A stretch of DNA of 20,000 bases, taken from assembly GCA_008632985.1 (NCBI GenBank), contig QPGO01000297.1, positions 49,776-69,775 on the forward strand, read 5' to 3'. Shown here in pieces: positions 123 to 20,000 of this stretch. The notes beneath the pieces were generated by a model, which worked only from the letters and a program-made list of their open reading frames with translations, had not been told where the DNA came from and made no database searches. The DNA is from Psammoneis japonica (taxonomy: Eukaryota). The translations under genes were made by a program, and so were the position numbers. Each line of letters begins with the position of its first letter. The stretch's first letter is position 1.

Positions 123-2520
123 ATGTTTGAATTACTTCCAGGGTACAATGTCACGCCCATGACAGACTTAGCTATGACGCTCCCAATGTTTTCTCACGGA
201 TCTCCGCATGCACCGGACTGGAACGACGACGGAAATCTTGATTTGTGGCATCATAATCACTACTCATTCAGCGGGGATGAACAACGATGGTCAGATCCAA
301 GTACGGATAGAAAGGGTCCAGATAGTACACCTGGCGGATGCATGGTGGATTGGGACGCTGTACTGCGAGACCCTGAGAGTGGGACGTACTATGCGCAGCC
401 CCATGGTTTCATTGCGTGGAGTGATAGTGTGAGGGACTGGTGTGTGAGTCCATTTCCGTCATTTCGGTGACTACGTCGAAACTGATTATATATTGTATGT
501 GTTCATATCTCACACAATTTCTTTGACATTATTCAGTTCGATGCGCATTCGAGTGCCTTTCTTGACATTGATAACGACGGGGTGAAAGACCTATTTGTGA
601 CTACGGGAGGCGGTAAAGGCTACGGAAACTCTTTTCGATACAACAATTTGCTCTTCTGGGGAGAGAAAACAAATTCAAAGGTTGGACTGCGATTGAGGGG
701 TGGCAGAAGAGCGGCAAAGAAGGCGGGATTAGACGGCCGAAATCACAGAGGGAACGAGAGAGGTCGTCACCAATACTGGATGGATGCCAATGGCGATGGA
801 TTTTTGGATGTTGTTACACTCACAGAAGAGAATAAGGCGAACTCGATAGTGCCGGGAAAGCTCTATCAAAGCCTAAACGGAAGAAAGTTTGAGGAGGTTG
901 ATGTTCTTGGTGGAAAAGATTTCGCAGAATTCGCCGAAATGGCAATGTACGTTTCGCATTTCGTGAAGTTTGAGTCGTGTGTAACTCGTTACTTTGCCCA
1001 TTTGCTGTACTACACGCGGTTTGTTTCCAAGTCTTCTTACGCTTTTCTCTTCCTTTTTCACAAAAAGACTCACAGACATTGATGGCGATGGCTACGCTCG
1101 TGAGTAGCCCTTTTGTTCTGCAGCTGCATCTTGGAAAGCCTTCTGCAAGGTTGATCCATAGGCATCCGTCACAAACAAGACTCGCTCAACCTTTCCATTG
1201 CCCCTTTTTCGTTCTTTTCGTTTCGTTCAGGCGAGTTCCTCGTGCCTTCACACTGCAATCCGCGTCACAATAAGCACGCCTCTCATCGCCCAAACTACGT
1301 TTGTAAAAGGGCTCCTCGCGGAAGCATAAGTGTGTACAAAATGCACCCTAAAAAATCCTTAACAAGAATGGCAACTATTCCACCTCTCAGACCTTATGAC
1401 TACATCAGGTCGATCGCCACGGGGGATTGGGATAAAGATGGAATTGCTGATATTGCGATCCTGTGGTTTAAGGAAGTTCATTTTCATCTATCAACAACAA
1501 GGCTTAAAAGATGTCGACGCTCAGAGAAAGACAGAGATCGCAGAAAATGCGCTTTCATTTTGGGCACACCGAATGACATTGTCAATCTCAGCACCGTGTG
1601 TGGTAATGAAGGGGCAGCGGGCATCCGTTTCGCTGACTTCAATCTAGACGGAAAGGAGGACATGCTTGTGTACGTTAACATACGTGAAGCTTTTCCATTT
1701 CTTCTTTTCTTTTCATTTGTGCTCACCCAATCGATCAATTCATTCTCGCAGTATCTGCAAGAAGCCTGGTCTTCACCGCGTATACGAGCAGATCTCAAAG
1801 CGCAGCTGGAAAGTGCTGAAGGATGACACTGGAGAGAAAGCTGATTTTGGTGATCTAAACAATCCAAAGTTGACCACGGGTGGACCAAAGTTCTGCGACG
1901 GCGTTCCGATCTCAGTTAACAACACAGCAGAGCGTTGTAAGCCACCATTTTATGGCTCGGAAGAATGTAAAGACGTGCGATACCACCACCAGTTCGTGAT
2001 CTGCAACATGAGAGCCAAGGATAACAGAAGATCCGTTGCCAGAGCTTTCAGTCCAACAGTTGCTGACATTGATAACGATGGATATGCTGACATTATCCTT
2101 GGGTACAAATTTGGGAGTACAGTGATAGTGCGAAACACGTTGGGAGAGGTGGAACCAAATAGATTCTTTTTGGTCCGGTTGGACAGAACGGCTGGAGCAG
2201 CGGCGTCCATTGGGGCCGTAGTAACAGTACACTGCTACCGGATGGGCCCATACAGCAATGAGACGAAGACACAAATGCGTGTCCTCTCCTCCCTCAGCCA
2301 TGGAACCGATGCCGAAGGCGGTGCCGAGGATAGATTGATCTTTGGACTCGGAAAGCATGGAAGGGTTTTTAAACTCACAGTGCATTGGCCACACTGTTGC
2401 GAACCAACAGAGATTTTTCACCACAACAACACAAAGCTCCTTACTTGGAATACTTCAAGCATGATGGAGCCCTTTGAGGTATATCTACCTGAGAATTGTG
2501 ATGGTAGTTGCTGGTTATAA
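123..2520 (+). CDS. FG-GAP/VCBS repeat protein with C-terminal ASPIC/UnbV domain (CRTAC1-like). Exons 123-443, 537-946, 1068-1099, 1231-1669, 1752-2520; the true 5' end may lie further upstream
   Basis: Repeated Ca-binding FG-GAP motifs: DWNDDGNLDL, DIDNDGVKDL, DANGDGFLDV, DIDGDGY, DWDKDGIADI, DFNLDGKEDM, DIDNDGYADI. C-terminal 'SIGAVVTV...TQMRVL...RLIFGLG...LTVHWP' fits ASPIC/UnbV. GT-AG introns at 444-536, 947-1067, 1100-1230 and 1670-1751 join the ORF pieces in frame. Confidence 0.88.
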
Positions 2521-3224: not shown

Positions 3225-3435
3225 TGCGGGTCGTGACATAAAATCCCCTTGCATCATTCTTCATGCCGACAGACATATAATCACAAACAAATGCTGATCC
3301 ACTGAAACTCTCACCATTCAGAAGGGTCATAGAAAACTGCGGGTCGCCCCGTGCATCATTCTTCGCGCAGCAGACATACAATCACAAACAAACAATAATG
3401 ATCGACTGAAACTCTCACCATTCAGAAGGGTCATA
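3225..3435. repeat. Imperfect ~105-bp tandem duplication covering the last codons and 3' flank of the minus-strand gene ending at 3415
   Basis: TGCGGGTCG...TGCATCATTCTTC...CAGACATAyAATCACAAACAAA...ACTGAAACTCTCACCATTCAGAAGGGTCATAG occurs twice (~3225-3331 and ~3337-3435). Confidence 0.9.
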
Positions 3436-4397
3436 GTCGTCTTCGAAGACTGGCATCCACTCGAGCGGGAAAATGTCGGGGAGGCGAGGAATCATGGAAT
3501 CGCGTGCCTTGTGCATAAAGTTAATGCGGTTCGCCAACTGTTCTCCAAGCACCTGATCGGCCACCAAATCACGCTTGTTGAGCATTCCCTTGATGACATC
3601 CTCCAGATGATTGAATTGTGATTTGTACCAACGTTCGCTTTTTATTTGCTGATCGCATCGAAAACTTCGTATCAAAACTGCGCTCACCCGCTTCATGGGG
3701 AGCATCGTTGAGCGTTTTTTAACATCATGTCGAGAAAATAATCAGAGCACAGGGAGCAACCCCAAACGTAAGATAAACATTCTCTGCCATTGAAGGCAGA
3801 ATCAAACAAGAAAAAGTTTTGTGTGTTTTGCGCCAAGTCGAACTCGGCCAAGCGGAGCTCGATGAGGCCCGTGAAGAGACAGTGGGCCTTTGGATTGTAC
3901 TCGTCAAGACTTTTCATGCCACAGAAATCTTCGGTCCAACTCCAGGGGGCGCAGAGCGATTCCTTGACAGAGAGGTCTTCTCCATAAAATGACAGGAGGT
4001 TGGAAACACACCCTGCATGGAATGGATGCAATCGTCTCGCCTTTTCAAAGTTGGAAAGCGAATTGAAAGAATCTTGACAGCGCGGATCCTTCTCCTTGAG
4101 AGCTTTGTCATCTTGCCACATTCGGGAACCACACCGCTTTCCACATTCGCTGCACAGCTTCCCGCAATGTGTGCAAATGTTGAAGGCATTGAGCTTGCCA
4201 ATGTGCTTGACAAGTTGTTCAAAGCATGGTGCATTGTTCAACACCGTCAAAATGGCCTCGTTCCAACCTTTTGAAATGATGCGGCACTCATCATTCAACT
4301 CATGCCATGGAAAGCATCCACCTCCAATGACAAGCTCAAACACAGTGCTTGAGGAGTCTACGCAAAGGCTCTTGGCAGAAGCCGGTGGGTTCGACAT
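3415..4397 (-). pseudogene. F-box-like hypothetical protein gene with a 1-nt frameshift at an A6 run (3715-3720) and apparent Tyr-to-Cys/His erosion of its 5' half
   Basis: ORFs 3693..4463 (ATG at 4397, MSNPP) and 3415..3705 fuse if one A is added (MMLKKRSTMLPMKRV). N-terminal 'VFELVIGGGCFPWHELNDECRIISKGWNEAI' resembles an F-box. There is no Tyr in the first ~135 aa, but Tyr is present further 3'. Confidence 0.55.
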
Positions 4398-4509
4398 GGT
4401 GATGACAGGAAAAACATCTGCTTCGAATCTCTCCACACTGTGAACACGACACGCAGCACACACCGTGGGTATTTTTTTTTAGCGCAGCAACAAATGATTT
4501 AGCCTTGCA

Positions 4510-6714
4510 TGGCCCGGAGTGCTTCAGCATTGTTCACAGTTGCACCAAAACATGCAAAAATCTGCTGAACAGATCAGAAGCCTGTTCTCTGCAGCTCTTC
4601 TTTAAGTTTTCCTTTTTTGGGTTGAGATTGTGACATTCTCCCCGCTGTTTCCTTGTTGTGTCTTCTCTCTGCTGCCTTCTCTTCTGTGTGTGTGTGGCAC
4701 CAAGGGCTGGAATTTGTGTCTTTGAAAGCTTTTGGTTGGGCAGATCCAAGGAGAAACAACGGGTGCTGCTCAAATTCCCCGAGCAGCATGCTTTTGTTCT
4801 CGATCTTCGAGTCGTGCATTTTTGGGTTGCTTCCTTCCGCAAAACTGTTGGGTCATGGTTTGGCTTGCCACGATCTGTCCTCACAAGCATCTTTGTTGCA
4901 ACTGTTGGATGTCCACGGAACTTTGGGCAGAGTGCCTCCGCAATGATGTCAAACTTGGTTTCACATGTGATGGCATGTTTGCACTGCAGTGGGCAGAGAG
5001 ACAAAGATGAGCTCTGCAAAAATGTGGCTGGACTTTCAAACATTGCAACAGAAAACAATGCTGTTGCCAATGGCATGCATTGGCACAAGACTGAGTGCAG
5101 CTGCAAGCCTGCTGGAGATCCCAGTCAGTTTCGCTGTCTGCCAACAACAACAAATGTTGAAGGTCTAGAAGAAAATGGGCAGAGGTTTGGTGTGACGAGA
5201 GCAGAAATTCTGGCAGAGTTTTTGGAAACAGCCCCCCACATTCAGAGTGCAGAAAAGGCTCAGCGAGCCAAGAAGAGACAATGCATTGAAAGTGAAAATG
5301 ATGGGAACAATGTTTCTTTGGAAGAGTTGGAGACTGCAAGGCAACAAAATGCCCCCTGCACTTCAACTGCTGGGATTCAATGCAAGCAGCACACAATGCA
5401 TCTTCACGCTGATGTTGGTTTGCCCCGCAGATGTGGATGTCAAGTTGGTTGTGCAAAACAGGGCCAATGTTCTTTCTGCCATTGTCAATCATCTTCAAGG
5501 GTTCAAATCTGTTTTGCCCAACCAGGGTGACAAGAAACTTGCCATTGAGTTTGAAAAAGTGGCCACTCATCACTGTGCACTCTGCATCATGGTGTCCATT
5601 CAGTGGCAGCCCTTGGCAATCTCAAGGGTGAAAGAAGGGAGATTGAAAATGACATGAACCAGGCTCAGTGCTGTCAACACATGATTCTAGACCAAAAAAA
5701 AAGATGGTGTCACATGACACAAATTGGCAGGTGGTGCAGCAGAGACAGGTGGCTGCTCTCCTCAGCACTGGAGCCAACAAGATGAGTCAAAACTGATGCC
5801 CTTCTTTGTTTGGAATCATTGGGTGAAAAATGCTTTTGTTCAATGTGAAATCAAGAGCTGGGGGGCTTTCTGTTTGGTTGATGTGTGAAAGTGTTCACAA
5901 CAAAATCATGCTGATGCTGCTGTGTCACTGAATGCAAAGAAGATGTTGTGGCGGAAGATGATGATGACTTTGAGAAAGCAATGGAGTCATTGGGCAAATC
6001 TCAAGAACTCTCAGGTCACTTTTTCTGCATTGACGGCAGCCCATTGGATGTGTTTCTTGGGAGTCAAGTGCACACATGCATGGGCTGAAAGGCTTTTGTG
6101 TTGATGGTGGTCTGTTGCAAGAAGCCTGCCATGAAGTTACATCATGAGAAGCTTTCCAAAGAATGTCTTGAGTTTGAGAAGCGCTGCTGCAGGCAAACTC
6201 AAATGCCCTTTTGGAAGAGGCAGCTGATCTCATGAACTCAGTTGCTTGTTCCAGCCAACTCGCAGTCAGAAGTCAGAACTCTGTGTTCTCTCAAGATGGG
6301 AATGTGCTCATGAAGTTTTGCACAGATCATGACTGGGCCAGCTTTCATGATGAGATTCTTGCACAATCCAGCCATCCAAGCTGTCAGCTTCCTGCCTTTT
6401 TGCAATGAAAAGCCGGGGTCATTGCATGAGACCGCCATTGTTTGGAAGGACGAAGGTCTTGGAGTCATGCTCTTGCTTTTCACACATTGTGAGCTTGGCT
6501 TGCTCCAAGTGCTTGATGAAAAGTCGTCCAAGTGAGTCAACAACTGCGGGGAAAGAGCCAAGTGGTGCAGAGCAATGAAAAAAAAGCAGCAAAAGAGGCC
6601 CGAAGATCAGCCACCAAGAAAGATTTGGAAACAAACCCCACCTTCATGGTCAACTTCGAGTGCCACCAGGACAACAATTACAACCACGTGGTGACACAGC
6701 CACAATCACGGTAA
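4510..6714 (+). pseudogene. Decayed coding sequence of unknown identity (repeat/TE-derived or duplicated gene) inside a TpA/CpG-depleted island
   Basis: Protein-like frames (…RAEILAEFLETAPHIQSAEKAQRAKKRQ…; …EALLQANSNALLEEAADLMNS…KKAAKEARRSATKKDLE…) are broken by TGA stops at 6406, 6427, 6490, 6514 and 6517 that read well as CGA (Arg). The 290-aa ORF 4658..5530 has no Tyr. Confidence 0.55.
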
Positions 6715-7197
6715 TTCGTCCTCACGCTGCTTGCTCAACGAAAAACACTGCAGCACCGGAAAGTGAGAAAATGTGATGACTGATGACAGACGAGTGGATG
6801 ACTTTGGTCAAAAGATTCGAACTGCCCTACTTAAGGAATGATATCTTCGAAAACATTATTGTCACTTTTAATAGAAGACCAATGGTATGACCTTTCTGTT
6901 GAATGTACAATGATTTTTATTGCCCTCACAGTCTTTAATGACTTGTTCTGATGTTTGGATATTGCATTTACTTAATTGGAGACAACATTTTTGTCCTTTA
7001 TAAATGTTCGGATAAATGTTTGGATCACATAACAAAGCACAAACAGAATGACCGCCTCACCGTGTGACCGCGATTGTAGTGACCGCCAATCAAGTCTCGT
7101 TCACTTTCAAATTCATTCCTGTGTCTCACAAAAACGGAAAATTCCTCGCGACGATCAAAGCGCACAGAGAGCGAAAAAAAAGTGAGAAGAGAGAACC

Positions 7198-8527
7198 ATG
7201 CGTGTCCTAGCCCTGGCTTTCCTTTTGGCCGCTTGCGCCGTCGGTGTCCGTGGGTCAAGCACGGAGGACAGTAGCACCGAGGTAAGTGATCCTGTGTTGC
7301 TTTCTCTGTGCGTCGAATCCGTTCTTTCCTCTCGTCGCACGTTGCGTAAGGCATTCTGCGTTTCTCATATTTTTCTTTCTTACTCCTCTCTCTCAGTTGC
7401 TGCATGAAGACAAAAATTTAGGAGATCTTGTGCAAGAAGAAAAAGGAAACGATTTTTATATAGAAGATGAAGATAGTCAACGTTCCTTACGTAGGCGACC
7501 CATCATTGACGAAAGGTTGCCCCCAGACGTCCGCGCCACGAAACGCCGAGGCACTACTACCTATACTCTAAACATTCGCATCTGGTATTGGCTGAGGCAA
7601 AAAGACTTGTGCTTTGATCCTTTAGAATGGTGCACAAGCTACATCGCCGATGAGTTTGAGTCGGCGGATTTGGAAAACAAAGCTACGGTTTTGGCTTATG
7701 CAGCAGCTTGGGGTAACTGCTGGGCGACAGCTCGGGCCACTTCGAGAGTGAGCGCCCTTGTTGATGCCGAAGCCGTACTCTCCGTCAAGCAACGAGGACG
7801 GATTGGAGCTGTAAAGGAAGTCAATTTCAACTCTCGATTGGATAAGTGTCAGCTGTCGGTTGCATACAGCCGATCTGCCGCCGAAACCTCGCTAGACTCT
7901 GAAGGGCAAGCTCTTGCGATCACTGACCTGAATGAGGTTTGCACAAAAATGAGCCCGATACACCCGCACTACTTCGCGCTCTGCGCTGACGGTGTTGGAG
8001 ACGCAGAAGCATTTGGCTATGCTAATGCGGACTCTACCGCTTCCGGTTTCTCCCGAGCGTTGGCAGAGTCACACACGTCACAGACAGTAAGCGTCAAATC
8101 CGAGGGCAGAAGCATCGAAAGCTTCCATGCCGTCGTAATTGGTGGGGCATCCAGCTTTACTCAGGCCGGCACTAGAACTATTGCTAATGCATACGCCAAT
8201 GTTGCCACCATTGCGGTTGCTGAATCTTGGATCAGTCATTGTTTGGAGTGGTATGGTTGGTACTGCGCTAGGAATAAAAATTCCTTTTGCTATGAGGACT
8301 GGGGCTACACTTGCATTGAGGCGTGGTCTATTGCGGAAACCGGAGCCAACGCTTTTGCCGATGCATTTTCAAAAGCTGTGGCGAGATCCACGGCCGACCT
8401 TGAAGTTACAGTTGCAGTGAGAGCGTTGTTTGCTCGTGATCGGGCGACTGGCAAAGTTTCCATGGGCTTGGAGGCAGACACCGAGTTTTCTGCAGGTGCA
8501 GTCGCTACCTGTAGGGCCAAGACATAA
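7198..8527 (+). CDS. Secreted Ala/Ser-rich, Cys-containing hypothetical protein (~404 aa); exons 7198-7281 and 7397-8527
   Basis: Signal peptide MRVLALAFLLAACAVGVRG. A GTAAGT...CTCTCTCAG intron (7282-7396) joins it in frame to the long ORF. An acidic pro-region is followed by an RSLRRR motif. Confidence 0.85.
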
Positions 8528-9575
8528 AGAAGTAATTTGGGATGTGTAAGCAAATGAGTGGCAAGGGTGATGAGCTCATCTTATTGCTGACTGTTGGGAA
8601 GTGCTTGTTTATTAGGGATCGGGCAACACAAGAATAGAATGCAAGGCGACAGGAAAGGGCGACTTTGGAGCGGCCGTTTATGTTCTGATGTTGTGGTGGC
8701 TACTCGTACGATTACAAAGCAGACACTAACTATTGATAGCATTTGGATACAATTTCGTGTCAGCAACTTTCAAAGTTTAGTGCGGAAACGGATCGAAACC
8801 AACGCGTCTTCCATAAAGGGTGGTTGAGAAAAAGCTTGCACCGCAACTAAAATGCTTGACTTGTCTTCACACCACGTTTGCTGTTGGAAGCTTTTGGTAA
8901 AAAGGACAAAAAAGGAAGCAACAAAAGTCGCTTCCAAGCCATTCGCGTTCCCAACAGATCCTCTAGGTACGAAACTATTACTCCGCGCCGAGGGCCGGGG
9001 TTGGCAATCAGCATACCCAACCTCATCGACAACGACCAATAACCTCCAAATCAAGACAGATGATATGGGCCATTCGATGAGATTCTTCCTTTTCAACATT
9101 GCGACGTGATTGGTTTCCTTTTTGTGGCTGTGTTCGACGTGCAATGCAAGTGTGATACAAAACGTGGTTCAAAGAGTTCGTCGCATTCGACTACATATCT
9201 GACCCCGAGGACAAGTTGCTCAAGCACCTCCCGCAACAGCTGACCTTCTGGTCTACTTGCGCATCTACGTGATGATATTCGAAAGGACGAAGAATGGCCA
9301 TGACTGCGAAGCGTGGAGGTTTTGCAACTGCAACTCTTGCGAGTTATAAGCGTATTTTTTAACGATATGCAACTTACCTTGCGCCTATTCTACAATACAT
9401 ATAGCGTAAAGAACCTTCCATTAAAAGCTATCAATCAGCGAAATTCCTGACGGGGTCTAATTCCCCTAAAGTACCTAAAGGAAGTTATATCACTTTCAGC
9501 AGAAAGACTGCACGTGCATGCAAAGCTACCATACTCTACCGGTACCTCACCACTCGCCAGCGATTCCAATTCCAA

Positions 9576-10838
9576 TCAATAGTCTTCATAGTCTCCGTCA
9601 TCATCTTCACCTTTCTCCCTATGAAAATGCTCATCTTGAAAGCGGAACTGCTCGTATCGTCTGCTTAGATCGTCCAGTATCACCGGCCCAAGATTACCCG
9701 TGTTGAAAAGCTTCAAAAAGTTGGTGCAACGTTTCAACGTCAGTTGATCTTCTGGGAGTCTCTCGGCGTATTTGTTGGCAAATCTGACCAACACGTCGTG
9801 TACATTCTCCGTGGGCGCCTCAAGACCAATCTTTTTAACATAGCAAAAGTTCTTGTCGCGATTGAGACAAAAGAGCAAGTACTCACAAAAGGCGGTTTGT
9901 AGTGCCGGATCCGCCTTCATATTTTTGGACATTGGCAAGAGATTGGCGACACCATAACCGTACCAAGCCCCTGGACGCTCTCGAAAAAAAAATTGGGGAG
10001 GTGTCACTCCAGGTACATCGAGAAAGAATGCTCGAGGCTTTTCGCGAATCATGTATTCCGTGAGAACTCGTGTTTTGCCGGGTGTATCCTCAATCGCCGG
10101 ACCACCCGACTTTTTGAGATTTTTCTTCTTCTCCCCCACCTTTACCTTGACTTGCTTCTTGATAAGTCCTCTTGCTTTAGCATTACGGAGCAAACATTGC
10201 AACAAGCTGCTCTTGCCCGTGTTGGCAACACCAACAGTCAGTGCCGTGTTGATCCCACCCTTTGTTTCCACGTGATGCAGGAGACCATCATAGACTACAT
10301 CAAAAGCTTCCGCTTCGGATCGGTTTTGTCTCGTGTCTACAAAAATACTTCTCGAGTCTGGCCAGTTTTTATCGGTCCATCGCTCGACGCGATCTCTCGT
10401 CTTGGCATCAATCATGTCAGCGTGAGTGTAGCAGATCAAATGAAGACGGTGTTTGGCGAGACGAGTAAAAGACGGATGATGGGAGGATCCTGGTAAACGA
10501 ACATCCCGAATCTCCAGCAGGACGTTGGCCTGATAGGACTTTTTGTGGATGGACTCTAGAGCTTCAAATTCATACTTGGGCGAAGAATGCAAGTATTGTT
10601 CAAACGCGGCTCCATTCCATTGCGTAGACCAGTTTCTAGTCATGGATTCCCATTTCTTTTGTTCTTTGGCCTCAACAGTCGAACGTGACAGGGCTCGTCC
10701 TATATGATACTTGTCTTCACATTCGATCCGGGTACTAAACAGCCGAGAATATGCCGAGCGTTTCTTGAGACACCACGCGACAGGAGCTACCCGCCGCCAC
10801 GCACCTCCATTCATGATGCCGCTTGATCTGAAGATCAT
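9576..10838 (-). CDS. Circularly permuted ribosome-biogenesis GTPase, YlqF/RbgA/MTG1 family, probably mitochondrial
   Basis: Motif order DVRLP, G4-like THAD, G1 GVANTGKS, G2 PGKT, G3 DVPG is characteristic of circularly permuted GTPases. C-terminal 'FNTGNLGPVILDD' and a basic N-terminal presequence also fit. Confidence 0.9.
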   Translation of the reverse strand: MIFRSSGIMNGGAWRRVAPVAWCLKKRSAYSRLFSTRIECEDKYHIGRALSRSTVEAKEQKKWESMTRNWSTQWNGAAFEQYLHSSPKYEFEALESIHKKSYQANVLLEIRDVRLPGSSHHPSFTRLAKHRLHLICYTHADMIDAKTRDRVERWTDKNWPDSRSIFVDTRQNRSEAEAFDVVYDGLLHHVETKGGINTALTVGVANTGKSSLLQCLLRNAKARGLIKKQVKVKVGEKKKNLKKSGGPAIEDTPGKTRVLTEYMIREKPRAFFLDVPGVTPPQFFFRERPGAWYGYGVANLLPMSKNMKADPALQTAFCEYLLFCLNRDKNFCYVKKIGLEAPTENVHDVLVRFANKYAERLPEDQLTLKRCTNFLKLFNTGNLGPVILDDLSRRYEQFRFQDEHFHREKGEDDDGDYEDY

Positions 10839-10899
10839 CGCATATCATATGGTCCAATTGGTTCTATTGTGTCGTACGGTATGAGCTAAATGATGAAAG

Positions 10900-10923
10900 A
10901 TGAATGAATGAATGAATGAATGA
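10900..10923. repeat. (ATGA)n microsatellite, about 6 units
   Basis: atgaatgaatgaatgaatgaatga. Confidence 0.9.
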
Positions 10924-11056
10924 CAACAATAGAACGATACCTGTCACCTGTCACTTGTCACCTAACACATTTTGGAAAATTTGATTTCTGCAAAATTCCA
11001 AAAATTGGGGGATCTTTCATGCAATCATGACGTCAGCAGGACCTCACATTTTTAAA

Positions 11057-11889
11057 GTCTGTCTGTCTCCCCTCACTCCGGCTTGCTTTCTCGACTTCCT
11101 TGCACCTTGCTTGCAATCCTTGCGGTCACAACCGCACCTTTCAAATTTTCTAATGTTAGTGAGAACACCCAAGCTCAGTTGAAAGTTGTAAGAGCTCCCA
11201 TCCACAAACCCAGCAACATGCTCAAACTCCTGCGACTCAAAGCAGTGGGGCCGTGCACGGGCGCACACATCAAAATCAAGAAGAAAACCTCCGCCCTTGG
11301 CGTTGTTGACATGGCAACAAGTGACGTGTCTGGACCAGCAGCCCAAACCAGTTGTCACTGTCACACATTTTGGGAACCATCTCCAGCAAAACCTTGCACT
11401 TTGAGTGCAGCTGTCTTCATCTGCTTCGGCGATGTCAAGCGGAACCTGGGCGCTTTGTTGCCCCCCGCCACACTGCTCCTCTGTTCACATGCTGTTGTGC
11501 TCTCCCCCCTTTGCCATCAGAGTGACAGCTCATCACCAGCGCAGGCACCCCTTGTTCGAAAACCGTGATCTTTTCTAAACTTGACAGCTGCAGATGCTCA
11601 GTTTGGTGTTGCTGCTGTCACACCACGTCACTGCGCTTCGTTTGCTCGTTGCTCGGTTGCTCGTTGCTTGCTTTGTGTTTGAGTTGTGTGCCATGTGGGC
11701 ACTGCATGGCATGAAGAAAGTGACGAAAGCACTGCGAATACGGACGTTGAAAAAAATTGCATGCATTGCTTCAGTCTGTTTTGACAAAACAGGAAATCCA
11801 ATCGTTGAAAAAATTTGCATGCATTGCACTTCGGAGTCTATTGTGCTTGACAAAAAAGGAAATCCAATGTCTGTCTGTCTCCCCTCACT
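11057..11889. mobile_element. ~790-bp insertion (11078-11868) flanked by perfect 21-bp direct repeats (probable target-site duplication), carrying a decayed minus-strand ORF fragment
   Basis: GTCTGTCTGTCTCCCCTCACT occurs at 11057-11077 and 11869-11889. The interior is TpA-depleted. The minus frame 'RFCWRWFPKCVTVTTGLGCWSRHVTCCHVNNAKGGGFLLDFDVCARARPHCFES' is Cys/His-rich. The right end has two ~60-bp tandem units. Confidence 0.7.
11746..11868. repeat. Two imperfect ~57-66-bp tandem units at the right end of the insertion
   Basis: CGTTGAAAAAAwTTGCATGCATTGC...TTGACAAAAmAGGAAATCCAAT occurs twice. Confidence 0.85.
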
Positions 11890-11979
11890 GACTCAGCGCC
11901 TCGTCACTCGTCACCGTACCATGTGCCATCTCGCATCTCGCACAAAAAAAATCAAATTTCGACAAGATTTCGATTGACC

Positions 11980-12684
11980 ATGGTGTCGTTTACTCCCTTG
12001 CACCCGTCAATAGCACTCCTTGCAGTCACAACCACCTTCTTGGGTGTCGCTCATGGTTGGTCCCACCAACCACCACGAACGGCACATTCTCGGAGAGACT
12101 TTTTCCAAGGAGGTGCCGCATTTCTCGTTGCAGCATCAACCACACTACCGCTTGCTGCCGTGGCGGCCGCAACGCCATCTGCCCAAGAGCTTGAAAAGCT
12201 TCAAAAAGGCCATGCTCGCGTTCAGTACTTGTTGGATCATTGGGATGAAGTGACACAAGTGTGTGGCACAGCCGTTATGAGTGATACGGAACGACGACAA
12301 GTCGTGCGAACCGAGGGTGGTGGAGGAACGACGGGATGTACCAAGACGCCGCTGCGAGTTCAGGAATTTATGGGTTTCAAGAGTACAGAGGATCCTCTCT
12401 TCAAGGCGGACAAGCTCATGGTTCGGGCGACGCCACTAGTGGATCCGGATGATCTAGATGGGTACTTGGATGCTGTTGAGAAGTACAAGGAAAAAGCGGA
12501 CAACACGGCTCTCATGGCGTATACATCCTCTTGGGGAGAGGCAAATCCCAATGGAGGAAAAGAAGTAATTGATGATTATCTTGAGCGAACAAAGGCGGAT
12601 GTGATTGACTCGGAAGCGTCGTTGAGGAGTGTGTTAAAGTATCTCAACCTGACGCCCTTGCCACCCATTCAAGGAAAGCTGTAG
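11980..12684 (+). CDS. Nucleus-encoded thylakoid-lumen protein of unknown function (234 aa)
   Basis: ATG at 11980. Signal peptide ends AHG|W (an ASAFAP-type aromatic +1 residue). A transit peptide, a twin-arginine SRRDF motif, a hydrophobic stretch and an AxA site follow, i.e. the tripartite targeting typical of complex plastids. The ORF is intact with host-like composition. Confidence 0.85.
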   Translation: MVSFTPLHPSIALLAVTTTFLGVAHGWSHQPPRTAHSRRDFFQGGAAFLVAASTTLPLAAVAAATPSAQELEKLQKGHARVQYLLDHWDEVTQVCGTAVMSDTERRQVVRTEGGGGTTGCTKTPLRVQEFMGFKSTEDPLFKADKLMVRATPLVDPDDLDGYLDAVEKYKEKADNTALMAYTSSWGEANPNGGKEVIDDYLERTKADVIDSEASLRSVLKYLNLTPLPPIQGKL

Positions 12685-13085
12685 CTCGACCGCTACATAC
12701 GGTATTATAATACCTCCTATGCTACAGTACACATGAATGTTCCCCAGTGTGATCATTATTCTACTTTCCATGACACCTTCACTGACCCGGCGCTGTCAAG
12801 TTTGAACGAGTAGGCAAGGAGCAGGTCGCTCATTTAAAATTGTCAGTCCGTTGTTACGAAGTATCCTTGCTCGTATTTTGTTCCTCAGCACACGGTGCAT
12901 TGTGAGATCACTGCGCAGTCATGTTCAATCGCTGTAAAGTCCTAAAGCATGGGTCGAGGTTCGAGAGATGTATTCGCTGTCTTTCACTGGTGTGTCTCTC
13001 TCTATCTCTCTCTGGTAATCCTAATTGTGTCGTTCCGTCCGATGCCTTCTCTTCACTCCTCGTTTCCGCACTTATCAAAATCTTA

Positions 13086-13121
13086 TTTTGGGAGCCTTGC
13101 ATGTTTTGGGAGCCTTGCAGG
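13086..13121. repeat. 18-bp tandem duplication
   Basis: TTTTGGGAGCCTTGCATG followed by TTTTGGGAGCCTTGCAGG. Confidence 0.85.
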
Positions 13122-13182
13122 TTTTAAATATGTGTACGTTTAGAGAGAAAACCACCCTTGCTTTCTTCTTTTCAGCCACAAA

Positions 13183-14285
13183 TCATGGATCCAAGCCACC
13201 TGCTTTGGGGTGGTGAATGACGAAATGGTTGCAAACGACCTCCAACTTGTACCCCAAATCGCTGTGCATTTCCATAAACCAACTCGTCTCGTTGTATTCG
13301 AATCCACGTCGTGACCAGTTGTACTGTGGTAAACCGTGTCGATAGGCCACCACCACGTGGGGCGGTTCCAAAAAGCCTTCTTCTAGTATTGGATACGAGA
13401 ACTCGACAGTATCAAGTCGGTACCAGTTTTTGGCAAAATGATTGCCGGCACCATGATGGCCTCCGACCGCGTGAAACGGAGCCGCTTCATCCTTTTGAAC
13501 AAGTGCCAACAATTCTTGTTTGGAAATGGGCATGATGGATTGTTTTGCAAGGGCATTACCTTTTCTTGTGGACGACGTGAATGGACTCAATCGCTCAAAA
13601 GCAGGCAGCATATAGAGTGTCTTGTGTATCAGACCGTCTCGAAAGTCATGGGTGTCAAGAGCAGCCTTGAGTGAGACATATGCTGCGGCATCCGGAACAA
13701 ACTCGACATTATTAACGAACAACAGCAAGTAGTCGCTCTCGATGGAATTCATGGCCAGGTTTCTCAACTGATTCGTCGGATAGTAATCGAGGTTTGCCTC
13801 CCAAAAAGAATATGAATAGACGTTTTTGTCAATTTTTCGCCATGACTTGTTACAAAGGATTCCAGTGCTGAGATGTGATGCATGCTTTGAATAAGAATGG
13901 CACACGAGACGGGGCCTCCCCACTGTTTGATTAGATACAAGAGATTGTCGAGATTGTCCGTTGAAGCGTGTGTGACCAAAGTAATGTCGTGTTTTTGTAC
14001 CGGTCTTTTACTCGGAAAGGCGTTCGACAATTCAAGAGAAGAAGAACCTTTATCAGCAAGAGTACGAAGCATAATTTGCAGTGGCGCTCTCATTTCTCTG
14101 GGATGGACGGATCGAGACACAGGGAAAAACGTTCTCAGAATGAGCAAAAATGATATAACAGCAAGAAGCAACAGTGTGCATGCTCCTTTTGCTATTCGAA
14201 ATACTTTTGATTTGTCATTTCTTTTTGTTGTGAGAAGGAGGTTTTGTGGATGTGCAGTGTCGATGACACGAAACCTTCGCTTCAT
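13183..14285 (-). pseudogene. Glycosyltransferase family 49 (B4GAT1/LARGE-like) type II membrane protein, frameshifted at ~13803-13807
   Basis: N-terminal TM (TLLLLAVISFLLIL), then 'DITLVTHAS..L..L..QWGGPVSCAI', 'YPTNQLRNLAM', 'LYMLPAFE' and 'HFVIH'. Adding one T (HILF-WEANLDYYP) fuses ORFs 13764..14285 and 13183..13923. The DxD position reads NVE. Confidence 0.75.
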
Positions 14286-14429
14286 CGTTGTCGATGCCGC
14301 CCACCATCAAACCATCCAACGGCACCGTCCACCATCATGGTGTGGTGCGGTCGGTCGGTGCGTGAGTGCGTGCGTGCGCGGCAATTTTTTCATGTTCGTG
14401 GCCGGTTAAAGGAAAAGAGAAAAAAAGAG

Positions 14430-16500
14430 GGGAATCAACCGTTGAACACACACACACAATTGACCATGCAACCATGGCCAGAGTTGCACTGGCTTCTTTT
14501 GATCCAGGGTGGTTGCTGCAGGTGCAAAGAGTGGGGCACATTGCAGTTGCAGGAGGGTGACAATGTGGCACTGAGTGTGTGCCACCAGGCTGAGCAGCCC
14601 AGCTTGGGCATCAGCCAAGCCCTGCCAGGCCAGCTGCCCTGGCTCCAGCTGCTCTTCCCAGTGTGCGTGAGTTGTTGAAGGAGCACCACATTGACTCAAA
14701 GGCTGTGTTTTAAGTGGGGCAGAGAGAAAAACTGTTGTCTTGGCTGGTGCTTGCTTCAGACCCTGCATCATGAGCGCAAGCTCCTCTTGAGAAATGAGCG
14801 AGAATGGCCATTTTTGGCGCCTCTCTTTGGTTGCCCACTTGGCATTGCCAACAAATCTTGAACCAAACTTCACTCACAGTTTCTTCACTCTTCAACCACA
14901 AAACCAGGTTCAACTTTTTGTTGGCTTCTTTGTGGCTGGGGTCACTGTTGCAGGCACAAATGGTGGGCACATGCCATGTGGCTGCTTGGCAACAAGAGTG
15001 TGATGCCAAGCATGTGCTGCACACCAAGGAGCCAAGCAGCCCAGCCCAGCTTTGAATGGAGCCCCAGGACAGCAGCCAACTCTGGGTGATCTCAGCATGG
15101 TGTGCTTGTTTGGGCTGTGCTGCACTCACCCCACAGTGCTCTGTGTTGTGGTGGCTTGTTGTGCAAGCCGTGTGGCTGAAGAGCCAGCAGCCAGCCAGGG
15201 CCCATCTTGCAAAGGCCACAAATGTTGACCCTGTGCAAAGCTGTGTGAGGGGGCAGGCACAGGGATTTGCAATGATGGCTTCACAGCCATTGGCCCCAAG
15301 TTGGCATTTGATTGGGATCCAGTGCTGAGGGGCTGTGAAGTGTGGGGTTGGGAGCCCAGCCAGCTCGCACTCTCTTTGTTGTCACAAAGTGCTGCCACAG
15401 CTGTCTTTGCATTGCAGCCAGCCAGGTGCGGTTGACCCCAAGTTGGCACTTGATTTGGAGTGACTGCCAAGGAGCTGTGAAGTGTGGGGTTGGGCAGTCC
15501 AGCCAGCTCACACTCTTTGCTGACAGCAGAAAGCACTGTCGCAGCTGTCCTTGCGCACACATGGCCAGAGCAGCCTTGGCACATCCTGCTGACAAAACTG
15601 ACAAAGACAGCGACTCTTGTGGTTGAGCCACTCAGCACGCAGGAGATCTGGGCACACTCCTGGGAAGTCAAACAGGAAGGAGGGCTGAGCATTGCCGCCA
15701 GTGCCAGGCACAAATGTCAGCTTGTCTTGAGAGAGATTCGAGCCCACACAGCCCCGCGTTGGGCATCTTTGCTGGCAAAATGGAAAGCATTCTTGAGCAC
15801 ATTCTGGCATGTGGGCAGCACTGTCACCAAGAGGGCTGCTCTGCAGAGGAAGAGGGAAATGGGCAACAACATTTTGCAAGAACTGTTTTGTGTCAATGGT
15901 CGGGTGGGATGTGGCAGCATCATCTGGACTTTGATGGAGCATTTGGCGGACAAAGCTTGAGCACAGAGAGTTGTCCACTCAAGCTCCACAAGTGGCACTT
16001 TCCAAAGGTGACACCACACATGGGCCATGTGTTCATGCATCAACATGCCTCAAGCTGCAAGTCACACAAAAAAACCACCACCAACCTTTCAGCCAACCAC
16101 CATCATGGACAGAACAGGTCAAGAGGTTCAAAACAAGAGCGATTCATTGACTCTCTTCTGGTTCCATGCATTCAAGAGCTTCTTGTCCTTCTCAAATGTT
16201 TGTTGTGCATTGTTGTCTCTTTTAATTCAAGTGCAAAGAGGAGTCACTTTTCTTGTTTCCATCTCTTGAGATGTTGTTGGTTGTTGAGTGATGCAACTTT
16301 TGTTGTCACATTTTTGGAAATGTTGGCAAACCCGATCACTGCTTGATTGTCAACCCATTTGCTGTTTTAAGTCTCCATGGCATAAAATGCCATAATTCCA
16401 GAGCCCTCAATTGTTTCATCAAACGCAGTGCTTTGAAACACGTCCAACATCAACTCGACTCAGTTGAAATCCCAGTTTGTGGGCGATGAAAAATCACGAA
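14430..16500 (-). mobile_element. Heavily mutated retrotransposon relic, tentatively DIRS/Ngaro-like (end of RNase H region plus N-terminus of tyrosine recombinase ORF)
   Basis: Minus-strand fragments 'DTKQFLQNVVAHFPLPLQSS', 'FDFPGVCPDLL', 'RVAVFVSFVSRMCQG...ARTAATVLSAVSKECELAGLPNPTL' resemble, from memory, diatom DIRS-type RNH C-termini and YR N-termini. TpA and CpG are strongly depleted and there are many frame breaks. No catalytic YR motifs were recognised. Confidence 0.45.
15294..15554. repeat. Diverged internal direct repeat (~117-bp units, period ~142 bp) within the relic
   Basis: CCCCAAGTTGGCAyTTGATT...GCTGTGAAGTGTGGGGTTGGG...CCAGCCAGCTCrCACTCT...CAGCTGTCyTTGC occurs at 15294-15410 and 15436-15554. 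Confidence 0.85.
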
Positions 16501-16799
16501 TGTCAAACAAATGGCTACTTTCGACATCAAGATCCCCGAGTTCAATCCAAATGTGACGGTACGCCTCACAGCTTATGGCCATGACACATACAAGCATGCC
16601 TCATTGTCATCGCGTCGAGCACTCGTATCGAAAATGCCGATAGATCAAAGTTCAGGAAAAGGATGGAATACAAATTCATTTGTGAATTCATTAGTGGCAT
16701 TGGCGTAATGATATTTACGGCAGAAGCAATCTAAAATCCTTATTCATCATTGACATTTCTGTATTGCTCAGATTTTGAAATCTGACCACTACCGTTAAG

Positions 16800-16932
16800 C
16801 ATTTAGCTGTCTTTGTATGGAAGTGGAAATGACACTTAACGATTTACACTAACCATTTAGCTTTCTTTGTGTCGAAGTGGAAATGACACTTAACGATTTA
16901 CACTAACCATTTAGCTTACTTTGGCTCGAAGT
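16800..16932. repeat. 54-bp tandem repeat, about 2.5 copies
   Basis: CATTTAGCT..CTTTG....GAAGT starts at 16800, 16854 and 16908; the first two copies continue GGAAATGACACTTAACGATTTACACTAAC. Confidence 0.92.
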
Positions 16933-17219
16933 CAGACAAAGAGATTGGGCTATGGGCTTGTCGTTAACCAGCCACGAGCATGAAATCTTTACCGCGTGCG
17001 CTTGCATGCACGCATGCCATGATTTGGAGTCGTTGGAAAGTACAAGGAGCTATGATGCATACGCTTCCGCGCGTTCCACTCGCGTCAATGTGGCCTACGC
17101 GGAACAATACGAACAATCCAGTATGTAGAATCCTACATGCGACATGGGGGCTTGGCGATCGATCGTGCTGAGCGGCCAGACCATATTTTTTCTGCAGCAA
17201 CCAGCAACACGAACACACC

Positions 17220-18808: not shown

Positions 18809-19543
18809 GGCCTTGATATGTGTCATATATTATGTGTTAGCGACGTGAAGAATGTCAGCTTGTACTGGCTTGCCCTACAATAATTTTTAATGCTCATTAT
18901 ATGGTATCCAAGGGCTTGTGTTAATTCAGACTTGAGAACCATAGATCTACAGAGTAGGTACCTTCCGATATTCTACATAAGTACCATCGCAAACTCTGTC
19001 ACAATACGTGACGACACACAAAAGGTGCCCTTCTTTCTTCCCTTTTCTTGCCGAGTCAATAGAACCGTAATGACGCCAGACGTCGTTTCTTTTCGTTTGC
19101 TGCTTCAGTAGTAGCGTCTTTTCGGCTATTAGGGCTCTGAACTGGATCATTATTTTCGTGCCTTTCGTACCGTGAAACAAAAGTCCGTGCGGCGATATAC
19201 ATGCTCGTCGGGGAAGGCAACGGGGGCTTCGGTCCGACGATGCGCAATGAGAGGTCCGTGCGATAGACATGTAACAAGCGTTTCAAGTAGTGTGTTCTAC
19301 TGCTTCTGATGGATGGCAATACCATACGTCAACTTCTCGTGGTAAGCTGGTTGCGTAGATATTGGTTGAATAGAAGTAGAAAGGGTATAGCTACAATCTT
19401 AATAGCATCAACGGGATAGCCATTGGATCTATCTAGCGCCTTCATAGAAAGCTACTTCTACATCACGCTAGTCTACACAACATCTACCGTCACATCGAAC
19501 TGAGACCGACATGCACGTTCACAAAACACCCACTAAAAACTTG

Positions 19544-20000
19544 CTATTCTTCGCGAGCTCTCTTGACTCCTCTTTTTTCGTCTCGTTTCTTGACAAAGTT
19601 CGGGTTGTGCTGCAAGAACCAAAACATAAAGTTATCGTCACTTTGACGACCAGCCAAGACGTGCGGCCAAAGAGCATCAGGAATTACATTTTCTCGGCGC
19701 AGCAAGTGTCGTCCGGCACGGTTCATTTTGCAGTAGCAGTCCATTTCGTCTTGGTTATCGTCACGTTTGACGACTATCGTCACTTTGACGACCAGCCAAC
19801 ACGCGCGGCCAACGAGCATCAGGAACTCCATCATCTCGGCGCAGCAAGCGTCGTCCGGCACCGTACATTCCGCGGTAGTAGTCCGTTTTGGGCATGGTCA
19901 CCCTTTCAATCGAATACGAAGCCTTCCCGATTTCTTCGGGCGAAATAGTGAGTGCAGAACAACCATTCAAATAGAGAGTTTTGAGGTTCGGTAGCGATAG
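19544..20000 (-). CDS. 3' end of a leucine-rich-repeat protein gene (continues beyond the window), with a duplicated C-terminal module and a frameshift; possibly a pseudogene
   Basis: Frame from the window end reads LSLPNLKTLYLNGCSALT (an LRR). It is followed by 'DYYRGMYGAGRRLL...VPDARWPRVLA' and a second copy 'DCYCKMNRAGRHLL...IPDALWPHVLA...FMFWFLQHNP', a C-terminal cap typical of diatom LRR families. Confidence 0.7.
19633..19888. repeat. ~114-bp direct repeat (period 142 bp, ~87% identical) with a short partial copy between
   Basis: TATCGTCACTTTGACGACCAGCCAA...CTCGGCGCAGCAAG.GTCGTCCGGCAC starts at 19633 and 19775; partial copy TATCGTCACGTTTGACGAC at ~19756. Confidence 0.9.

Follow-up and report, generated by a model that had tools for sequence, protein, structure and literature searches.

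In a window of 20,000 nucleotides (nt) from the diatom Psammoneis japonica (contig QPGO01000297.1, positions 49,776 to 69,775; "the window" denotes this whole stretch, and coordinates are given within it), three islands are strongly depleted of the dinucleotide TpA and, less completely in every one of them, of CpG. Judging from the sequence, we consider it probable that these islands are segments in which a context-specific mutation of TpA to TpG or CpA has run near completion, and that this mutation was aimed at particular stretches of DNA. The islands and the sequence around them have the following composition, given as observed/expected ratios (o/e).

3775-4500: shoulder of island 1, partly depleted, spanning the 5' two-thirds of a gene at 3418-4397; TA o/e 0.10, CG 0.72
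4501-6678: core of island 1, in contigs of depth 61-68 that are continuous with host genes; TA o/e 0.03, CG 0.23, TG 1.72, CA 1.70
11054-11916: island 2, intergenic and single-copy, within a 7794-nt contig of depth 61; TA o/e 0.11, CG 0.65
14408-16367: island 3, inside a transposon, free of TA but for 2 sites (both in TTAA) and poor in CpG; TA o/e 0.02, CG 0.15, TG 1.72, CA 1.99
Background, 12,800 nt of non-island sequence in the window; TA o/e 0.62, CG 1.00, TG 1.15, CA 1.17

The depletion is real and lies far beyond chance. The core of island 1 (4501-6678) retains four TA, at 4603, 5166, 5688 and 6138, where 94 are expected (Poisson P = 3e-35), and island 3 (14408-16367) retains two, at 14711 and 16223, where 85 are expected (P = 5e-34), the next TA standing at 16368. 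An earlier note on this DNA, made from its letters alone, had put the numbers by eye at about 4 in 4510-6660 and 3 in 14410-16370, and our counts of 4 and 2 bear this out. Its description of three islands almost free of TA holds for the core of island 1 and for island 3, but is too strong elsewhere, island 2 and the left portion of island 1 being less extreme (0.10-0.11). The excess of TG and CA that it reported is likewise found, with o/e values of 1.4-2.0 across the islands as compared to 1.15-1.17 in the background, and the flanks do contain TA throughout, at 43 TA per kb (o/e 0.62) in the background. The dinucleotide AA is not depleted in the islands. When o/e values are followed in 40 non-overlapping 500-nt windows, TA and CG fall together (r = 0.75, P = 2e-8), and TA is inversely related to TG/CA (r = -0.85); the accompanying loss of CpG had not been stressed before.

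Public reads reproduce the islands. Three public runs of one sample served as reference, from which contigs were built using exact 31-letter words and aligned to the window. One contig of 1312 nt covers 4038-5349 and differs from the window in 1 letter, and another of 7794 nt covers 5323-13115 and differs in 3; the depth of both, about 61, is that of single-copy DNA. A tally of variant places with all regions mixed, which carries no polarity, gives A>G at 113 places, G>A at 90, C>T at 115 and T>C at 110, and each type of transversion at 20-41.

Several lines of evidence point to transitions at TpA as the origin of this pattern. The islands have 227-244 pyrimidine-purine (YR) steps per kb, about as many as the background (243). 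If 96% of the TA and 82% of the CG of the background are converted in a simulation, CA rises to 1.87 and TG to 1.85 (observed: 1.70-1.99 and 1.72), and the correlation of its profile with the islands increases from 0.70-0.79 to 0.96 and 0.95. Since YR density is unchanged and the simulation reproduces the profile, transitions alone suffice to account for the composition of the islands.

The direction of change can be read in the shoulder of island 1, where the border of the TA-depleted zone falls within a gene.

3418-4397, minus strand: gene of an unnamed protein family, with an N-terminal frame at 3696-4397 and a C-terminal frame at 3418-3741

The N-terminal frame has 18 relatives at E <= 1e-3 among 1.84 billion representatives (best E = 1.9e-28), and the C-terminal frame aligns to residues 272-334 of a homologue with 46% identity over 63 residues (E = 4e-19). 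Since the gene is split over two frames, an intron or a frameshift is to be expected near 3700-3790. The same genome holds at least three diverged copies of this gene, about 80-85% alike and aligned over 3785-4400. Differences between the window and other copies number 723, of which 40 are listed, all of them outside the transposon. Among these 40, eight have TA in the other copy opposite a TG or CA of the window, with no case of the reverse; in 12 the other copy gains a CG and in 3 it loses one. The comparison of copies that the earlier note had proposed thus supports the postulated direction for the shoulder, within the 40 of 723 differences listed.

The protein family tells a similar story. 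At nt 4304 the window has a histidine (His) codon where the other copy has tyrosine (Tyr), and Tyr also stands at this position in 6 of 9 distant homologues. In the 12 alignment columns in which at least three homologues carry Tyr, the window has His four times, phenylalanine three times, Tyr twice, and cysteine (Cys), glutamate and threonine once each. As a whole, the gene product contains 1.7% Tyr and 7.7% Cys, compared to 2.5-5.2% Tyr and 1.9-4.6% Cys in 10 homologues. A shortage of Tyr with an abundance of Cys, which had been claimed for relict frames in the islands, is therefore true of this gene, the one that is demonstrably real. The supposed relict frames are open reading frames (ORFs) with lengths within chance: the longest ORF of island 3 is equalled in 25% of second-order Markov copies (P = 0.25) and that of island 1 in 3% (P = 0.03). 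The many long, overlapping and spurious ORFs seen earlier do exist, and they arise because TGA is nearly the sole stop codon left, with lengths about as chance gives.

Searches for the identity of the island sequences and of this gene gave little. None of 104 island frames matched a Pfam family at E <= 0.001, the matches at E 0.001-1 being scattered and far below the family cut-offs, and Rfam gave 0 matches. A Pfam family is absent in 12 of 13 homologues of the gene. Word-indexed protein searches found no match for the frames 3696-4397 and 15627-16343, and scans of viral contigs found no relative with the frames 3696-4397 and 4634-5527 (the latter in the core of island 1) or with P0094, a homologue of the gene. 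A language-model search for look-alikes of P0094 placed hypothetical proteins of giant viruses nearest, though weakly (score 0.91, 113-130 shared features). Just past the 3' end of the gene, at 3245-3436, there is a 104-nt tandem repeat of 1.9 copies that are 86% alike; one contig steps back by 113 nt here, which hints at variation in copy number.

With respect to the sequence context, the TAs that survive in the islands are not a random sample. Nine of the 17 stand in YTAR (Y, pyrimidine; R, purine), a context that holds 81 of the 555 TAs (14.6%) in the background (P = 2.4e-4), and in the two core islands it holds five of six (P = 3.5e-4); most survivors are TTAA or CTAG. The presumptive products show the corresponding bias, with YTGY and RCAR together counted 379 times in the islands and YCAY and RTGR 245 times (binomial P = 9e-8), while the background has 500 and 454, respectively (P = 0.15; Fisher odds ratio of islands to background 1.40, P = 0.0013). 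From the YTAR survivors together with the excess of YTGY and RCAR it follows that the changed A would have a pyrimidine on its 3' side (TAY>TGY), and YTAR would resist because it is the sole class that reads TA-purine on both strands. Both strands are changed equally and without clustering, as shown by the counts of TG against CA (253/210, 224/227, 88/82 and 59/74) and by a runs test (|z| < 0.7). The earlier proposal of a strand-symmetric change of TA to TG or CA (A>G or T>C) on duplex DNA is thus one on which direction, context, strand counts and homologues agree.

Island 3 lies inside a mobile element whose end was spared.

14380-16993: high-copy DNA transposon, 2614 bp long, bounded by terminal inverted repeats
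16368-16993: tail of this transposon, 626 nt, with ordinary TA and CpG, repeated as much as the interior

The terminal inverted repeats at 14380-14405 and 16968-16993 are complementary at 20 of 26 positions, and the element is flanked by an 8-bp target-site duplication, GCGTGCGC, identical on both sides (14372-14379 and 16994-17001), the length of which is uncertain because the flank is a simple context rich in GC and GT. Contigs break off at 14380 and resume at 17037, with a loose end behind 16994. The depth summed over the transposon is about 7000, as compared to 61 for single-copy DNA; since this sum counts all contigs at least 80% alike, it speaks for a large family and not for identical copies. 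Many contigs, 303 of the 709 aligned, are at least 99% like the window over the transposon. In a check for hAT elements, terminal inverted repeats and an 8-bp duplication were found, and no transposase domain was among the Pfam matches. On this sequence evidence the element is non-autonomous or decayed, and we assign it to no superfamily. Metagenome contigs scanned with a 22-letter pattern of the terminal repeat gave 0 matches.

Within the element, the change from island to tail is abrupt: the segment 16501-17000 has a TA o/e of 0.68 and a CG o/e of 1.06. The tail contains a 54-nt tandem repeat of 2.5 copies at 16796-16932. Inside island 3, internal 142-nt duplicates differ from each other by two double differences of TG against CA, a hint that some of the decay came after the internal duplication. 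The spared tail suggests that the interior is an older, decayed fragment that was captured by the transposon, or alternatively that only lineages with intact ends kept transposing, or that parts of an element are targeted and not the element as a whole. As regards the transposon family itself, a read joint from 14974 to 16854 skips 1879 nt at a depth of 76 and represents an internally deleted derivative, and a few joints from 16993 back to 14380, at depths of 30-119 and with 5-6 variable letters inserted, represent neighbouring transposon copies lying head to tail.

Island 2 is bounded by a 24-nt direct repeat (11054-11077 and 11866-11889). At 11745-11868 it also contains a unit of 58-66 nt with the palindromic core TGCATGCA, tandemly duplicated with 83% likeness. 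The islands show no similarity to one another, either by BLASTN or in purine/pyrimidine code, and the latter comparison is informative because transitions cannot erase a purine/pyrimidine pattern. Taken together, the depletion is independent of copy number, and its sharp borders can fall within a gene or within a transposon.

The mechanism that we propose for the islands would have the following elements. Nearly every TpA in a target would be changed to TpG or CpA, i.e., by A>G on either strand, with a preference for TAY, such that TTAA and CTAG, which read TAR on both strands, would survive longest. Most CpG in the same segments would decay to TpG or CpA as well, though more slowly. Targets would comprise the transposon interior and two single-copy segments, possibly foreign, and repeats as such would not be targeted. 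The edge of the process could enter a neighbouring gene, where it would turn Tyr codons into His or Cys codons without creating new stops. As to the chemistry, enzymatic deamination of adenine on DNA by an ADAT2/TadA-like enzyme is a plausible candidate, and targeting might follow silencing marks that also bring CpG methylation. DNA methylation in diatoms has been described as mainly at CpG and as located on repeats (PMC5124317), which fits the CpG decay in the islands.

The closest known parallel comes from the chlorarachniophyte Bigelowiella natans, a rhizarian. In mutation-accumulation lines of this alga, 231 of 302 nuclear mutations fell into two single-copy integrated viral regions. With one exception, these 231 were changes of A>G or T>C; all 230 lay at TpA, and their rate was about 6e-7 per site and generation (10.64898/2026.01.13.699255). 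The same preprint describes 124 clusters of 1-kb windows in the B. natans genome that are depleted of TpA and enriched in CpA and TpG, as well as 324 coding sequences with a TpA frequency of 0.0018, and its authors propose an ADAT2-like DNA adenine deaminase, a candidate for which the preprint gives no functional data (10.64898/2026.01.13.699255). C>T hypermutation is absent from the lines it reports, its text is silent on CpG, and no statement on context past TpA turned up when its main text was searched by terms (10.64898/2026.01.13.699255).

When the per-window thresholds of this preprint are applied here, 4-6 windows of 1 kb qualify, depending on phase, and those starting at 4001, 5001 and 6001 form a three-window cluster (4001-7000), while islands 2 and 3 reach only 1-2 consecutive windows. 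The likeness to what the preprint describes extends to the change of TpA to TpG or CpA on both strands, to discrete TpA-depleted regions enriched in CpA and TpG, to a residual TpA frequency of 0.0018 in island 1 (4/2178), to the possibility of single-copy targets and to the presence of transposon-type sequences in the depleted set. By analogy, we infer that the islands may record the same process that was caught de novo in B. natans. The two cases differ in that the host here is a diatom (a stramenopile), in that the islands are nearly saturated and measure 0.9-2.9 kb as opposed to 25-186 kb, and in that a footprint is read from sequence here, whereas mutations were observed as they arose there. 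Furthermore, co-depletion of CpG and an apparent TAY context, with resistance of YTAR, are features of the diatom islands that the preprint text does not mention. As far as our full-text literature searches show, TpA hypermutation has not been reported in diatoms, and elsewhere it is described in this one preprint of 2026; the earlier suggestion of an undescribed mechanism thus stands for diatoms, but not in general.

Other known systems resemble the islands in part. Deamination of 5-methylcytosine in methylated transposons likewise changes CpG to TpG or CpA within the same segments, and the CpG depletion expected of it is found; the loss of TpA, however, is left unexplained by it. APOBEC3 and ADAR are animal families whose substrates are either single-stranded DNA intermediates of replication or double-stranded RNA. 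Like them, the process postulated here would leave the motif-specific transition footprint of a host deaminase on invading nucleic acid, but in our case a DNA transposon and chromosomal single-copy DNA are affected, the strands are equal and AA is not depleted. According to work cited in the Discussion of the B. natans preprint, ADAR prefers to edit an A that is preceded by U (10.64898/2026.01.13.699255). With TadA, ADAT2-ADAT3 and the adenine base editors derived from them, the edited A follows U or T, as it would here. In the anticodon loop of bacterial tRNA-Arg, a pyrimidine comes after the edited A, which matches the TAY preference suggested by the islands. The natural substrate of these enzymes is tRNA, however, and activity on algal chromosomal DNA is unproven; no TadA/ADAT-type gene is found within the window.

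The earlier note had viewed the islands as the work of a system similar to the repeat-induced point mutation (RIP) of fungi, acting on repeats. RIP changes C to T mainly at CpA, creates TpA and stop codons, requires duplicated DNA and mutates all copies. The islands are like it in that transitions accumulate regionally and in a specific context, such that mobile DNA is degraded and neighbouring genes may be affected. They differ from it in that TpA is lost together with TAA and TAG stops, Tyr is replaced by Cys or His in a missense manner and single-copy DNA is affected; a composition test for RIP gave the opposite of its signature (TA o/e 0.02-0.11, CA and TG 1.4-2.0). One may still imagine a homology-triggered mutation of TpA after duplication, since island 3 lies in a high-copy element, the genome contains diverged copies of the gene at 3418-4397 and the two TG/CA double differences suggest some decay after duplication in island 3. 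Against this speak the single-copy depth of the core of island 1 and of island 2, the lack of relationship between the islands, the transposon tail that is equally repeated and yet not depleted, the diverged gene copies that retain TA and CG at the compared sites although RIP mutates all copies, and the single-copy target described in B. natans, such that action on repeats as such has to be given up and a RIP-like trigger is very improbable.

Nor do we expect that the islands simply display the native composition of a donor that avoids TA and CG, such as a virus or a mobile element, or selection against these dinucleotides. In support of such an origin it can be said that no Pfam or viral relative identifies where the islands come from, that their borders coincide with insertion-like features (the 24-nt direct repeat of island 2, the transposon end of island 3) and that, given the 303 of 709 contigs so similar to the window, depletion may predate the spread of the transposon. 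A native composition would, however, leave unexplained why YTAR survives, why YTGY and RCAR are in excess, why the density of YR steps is that of the host and why a gene with relatives that bear TA and Tyr is partially depleted, and this makes it quite improbable. More weight is due to a chemical variant of the hypermutation that we favour. Since TA is palindromic, A>G on one strand is indistinguishable from T>C on the other, and the context result reads equally well as RTA>RCA. A modified thymine in RTA, for instance one oxidised to 5-hydroxymethyluracil or 5-formyluracil by a TET/JBP-type enzyme, could mispair with G in silenced DNA and thereby lead to T>C. Some protists carry modified thymine within TA, such thymine is mutagenic, and the losses of TA and CG are co-extensive (r = 0.75), as if both tracked a base modification of silenced DNA. 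The authors of the B. natans preprint found the ADAT2-like candidate instead, and we regard the thymine route as rather unlikely. Finally, an artefact of sequencing, base-calling or assembly at modified bases is extremely improbable: even though the assembly may have been made from these very reads, the contigs at about 61-fold depth depart from the islands in just 1-3 letters over 1.3-7.8 kb, and an artefact would not replace Tyr by His or Cys at conserved positions in a single member of the family, nor would it end sharply inside a repeat unit.

Some observations weigh against a targeted TpA hypermutation as we propose it, or limit how far it carries. The evidence is that of a footprint, and direction is polarised only in the shoulder, at 3863-4304, where up to three contigs were applied together for the 40 listed differences; in the core of island 1 and in islands 2 and 3, direction is read from composition and context statistics. 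The TA state of island 3 is that of the window's own transposon copy. All runs come from one sample, which may be that of the assembly itself, such that the read support is not independent. The transposon tail is as repeated as the interior and yet untouched, which calls for an extra assumption, and foreign DNA is shown for the transposon only. Moreover, since the B. natans lines, as far as the preprint describes them, had no C>T hypermutation, the CpG loss may be a separate process.

The islands are embedded in ordinary eukaryotic genes, which by Pfam encode an FG-GAP/ASPIC protein, an MTG1-like GTPase, a Glyco_transf_49 protein and an OCRE/G-patch protein. Among the relatives of the GTPase, the named ones come from the diatoms Cyclotella, Nitzschia and Thalassiosira (50-53% identity), and the best matches reach 71-73%; in a quick tree, the GTPase falls inside the clade that holds these diatoms, with Ectocarpus outside (SH-aLRT 91). 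The host gene thus agrees with a diatom, as the earlier note had guessed, and speaks against an origin of the window from Bigelowiella; an initial look-alike search carried no signal as to taxon. The FG-GAP/ASPIC gene (486-2517, plus strand) and the Glyco_transf_49 gene (13186-14306, minus strand) both run across different frames, and therefore probably contain short introns. Upstream of the GTPase gene there is an (ATGA)n microsatellite (10891-10930) at which reads seem to be cut. At 19633-19888, inside the ORF 19472-19945, two copies of a 142-nt direct repeat are 87% alike, and several read joints skip 134-155 nt there with differing filler letters, which suggests length variants or further members of the family.

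In a wider view, it is conceivable, though we put this forward as a tentative idea somewhat short of even odds, that diatoms carry an active pathway for editing the A of TAY, whichever strand bears it, that the marks which also bring CpG methylation aim it at silenced foreign DNA, and that this pathway has a common ancestry with that of Bigelowiella, as an old defence of the SAR group (stramenopiles, alveolates and rhizarians). Whatever the enzyme, any mechanism for the islands will have to accommodate the preference for TAY (or RTA), the equality of the strands, the co-extension with CpG decay, the borders below the level of the element and the independence of copy number. For genome annotation, islands of this kind yield long false ORFs and pseudo-proteins rich in Cys and His, and they mask the origin of the DNA in homology searches. 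If our interpretation is true, spread of the process from its edges into genes would replace Tyr by Cys or His without introducing stops, and would thus be a source of protein variation beside mobile DNA. TpA-directed hypermutation would then not be the oddity of one species, and the process would be placed in an ecologically dominant group with genetically tractable members, in which both the targeting signal and a candidate deaminase would be accessible to experiment.

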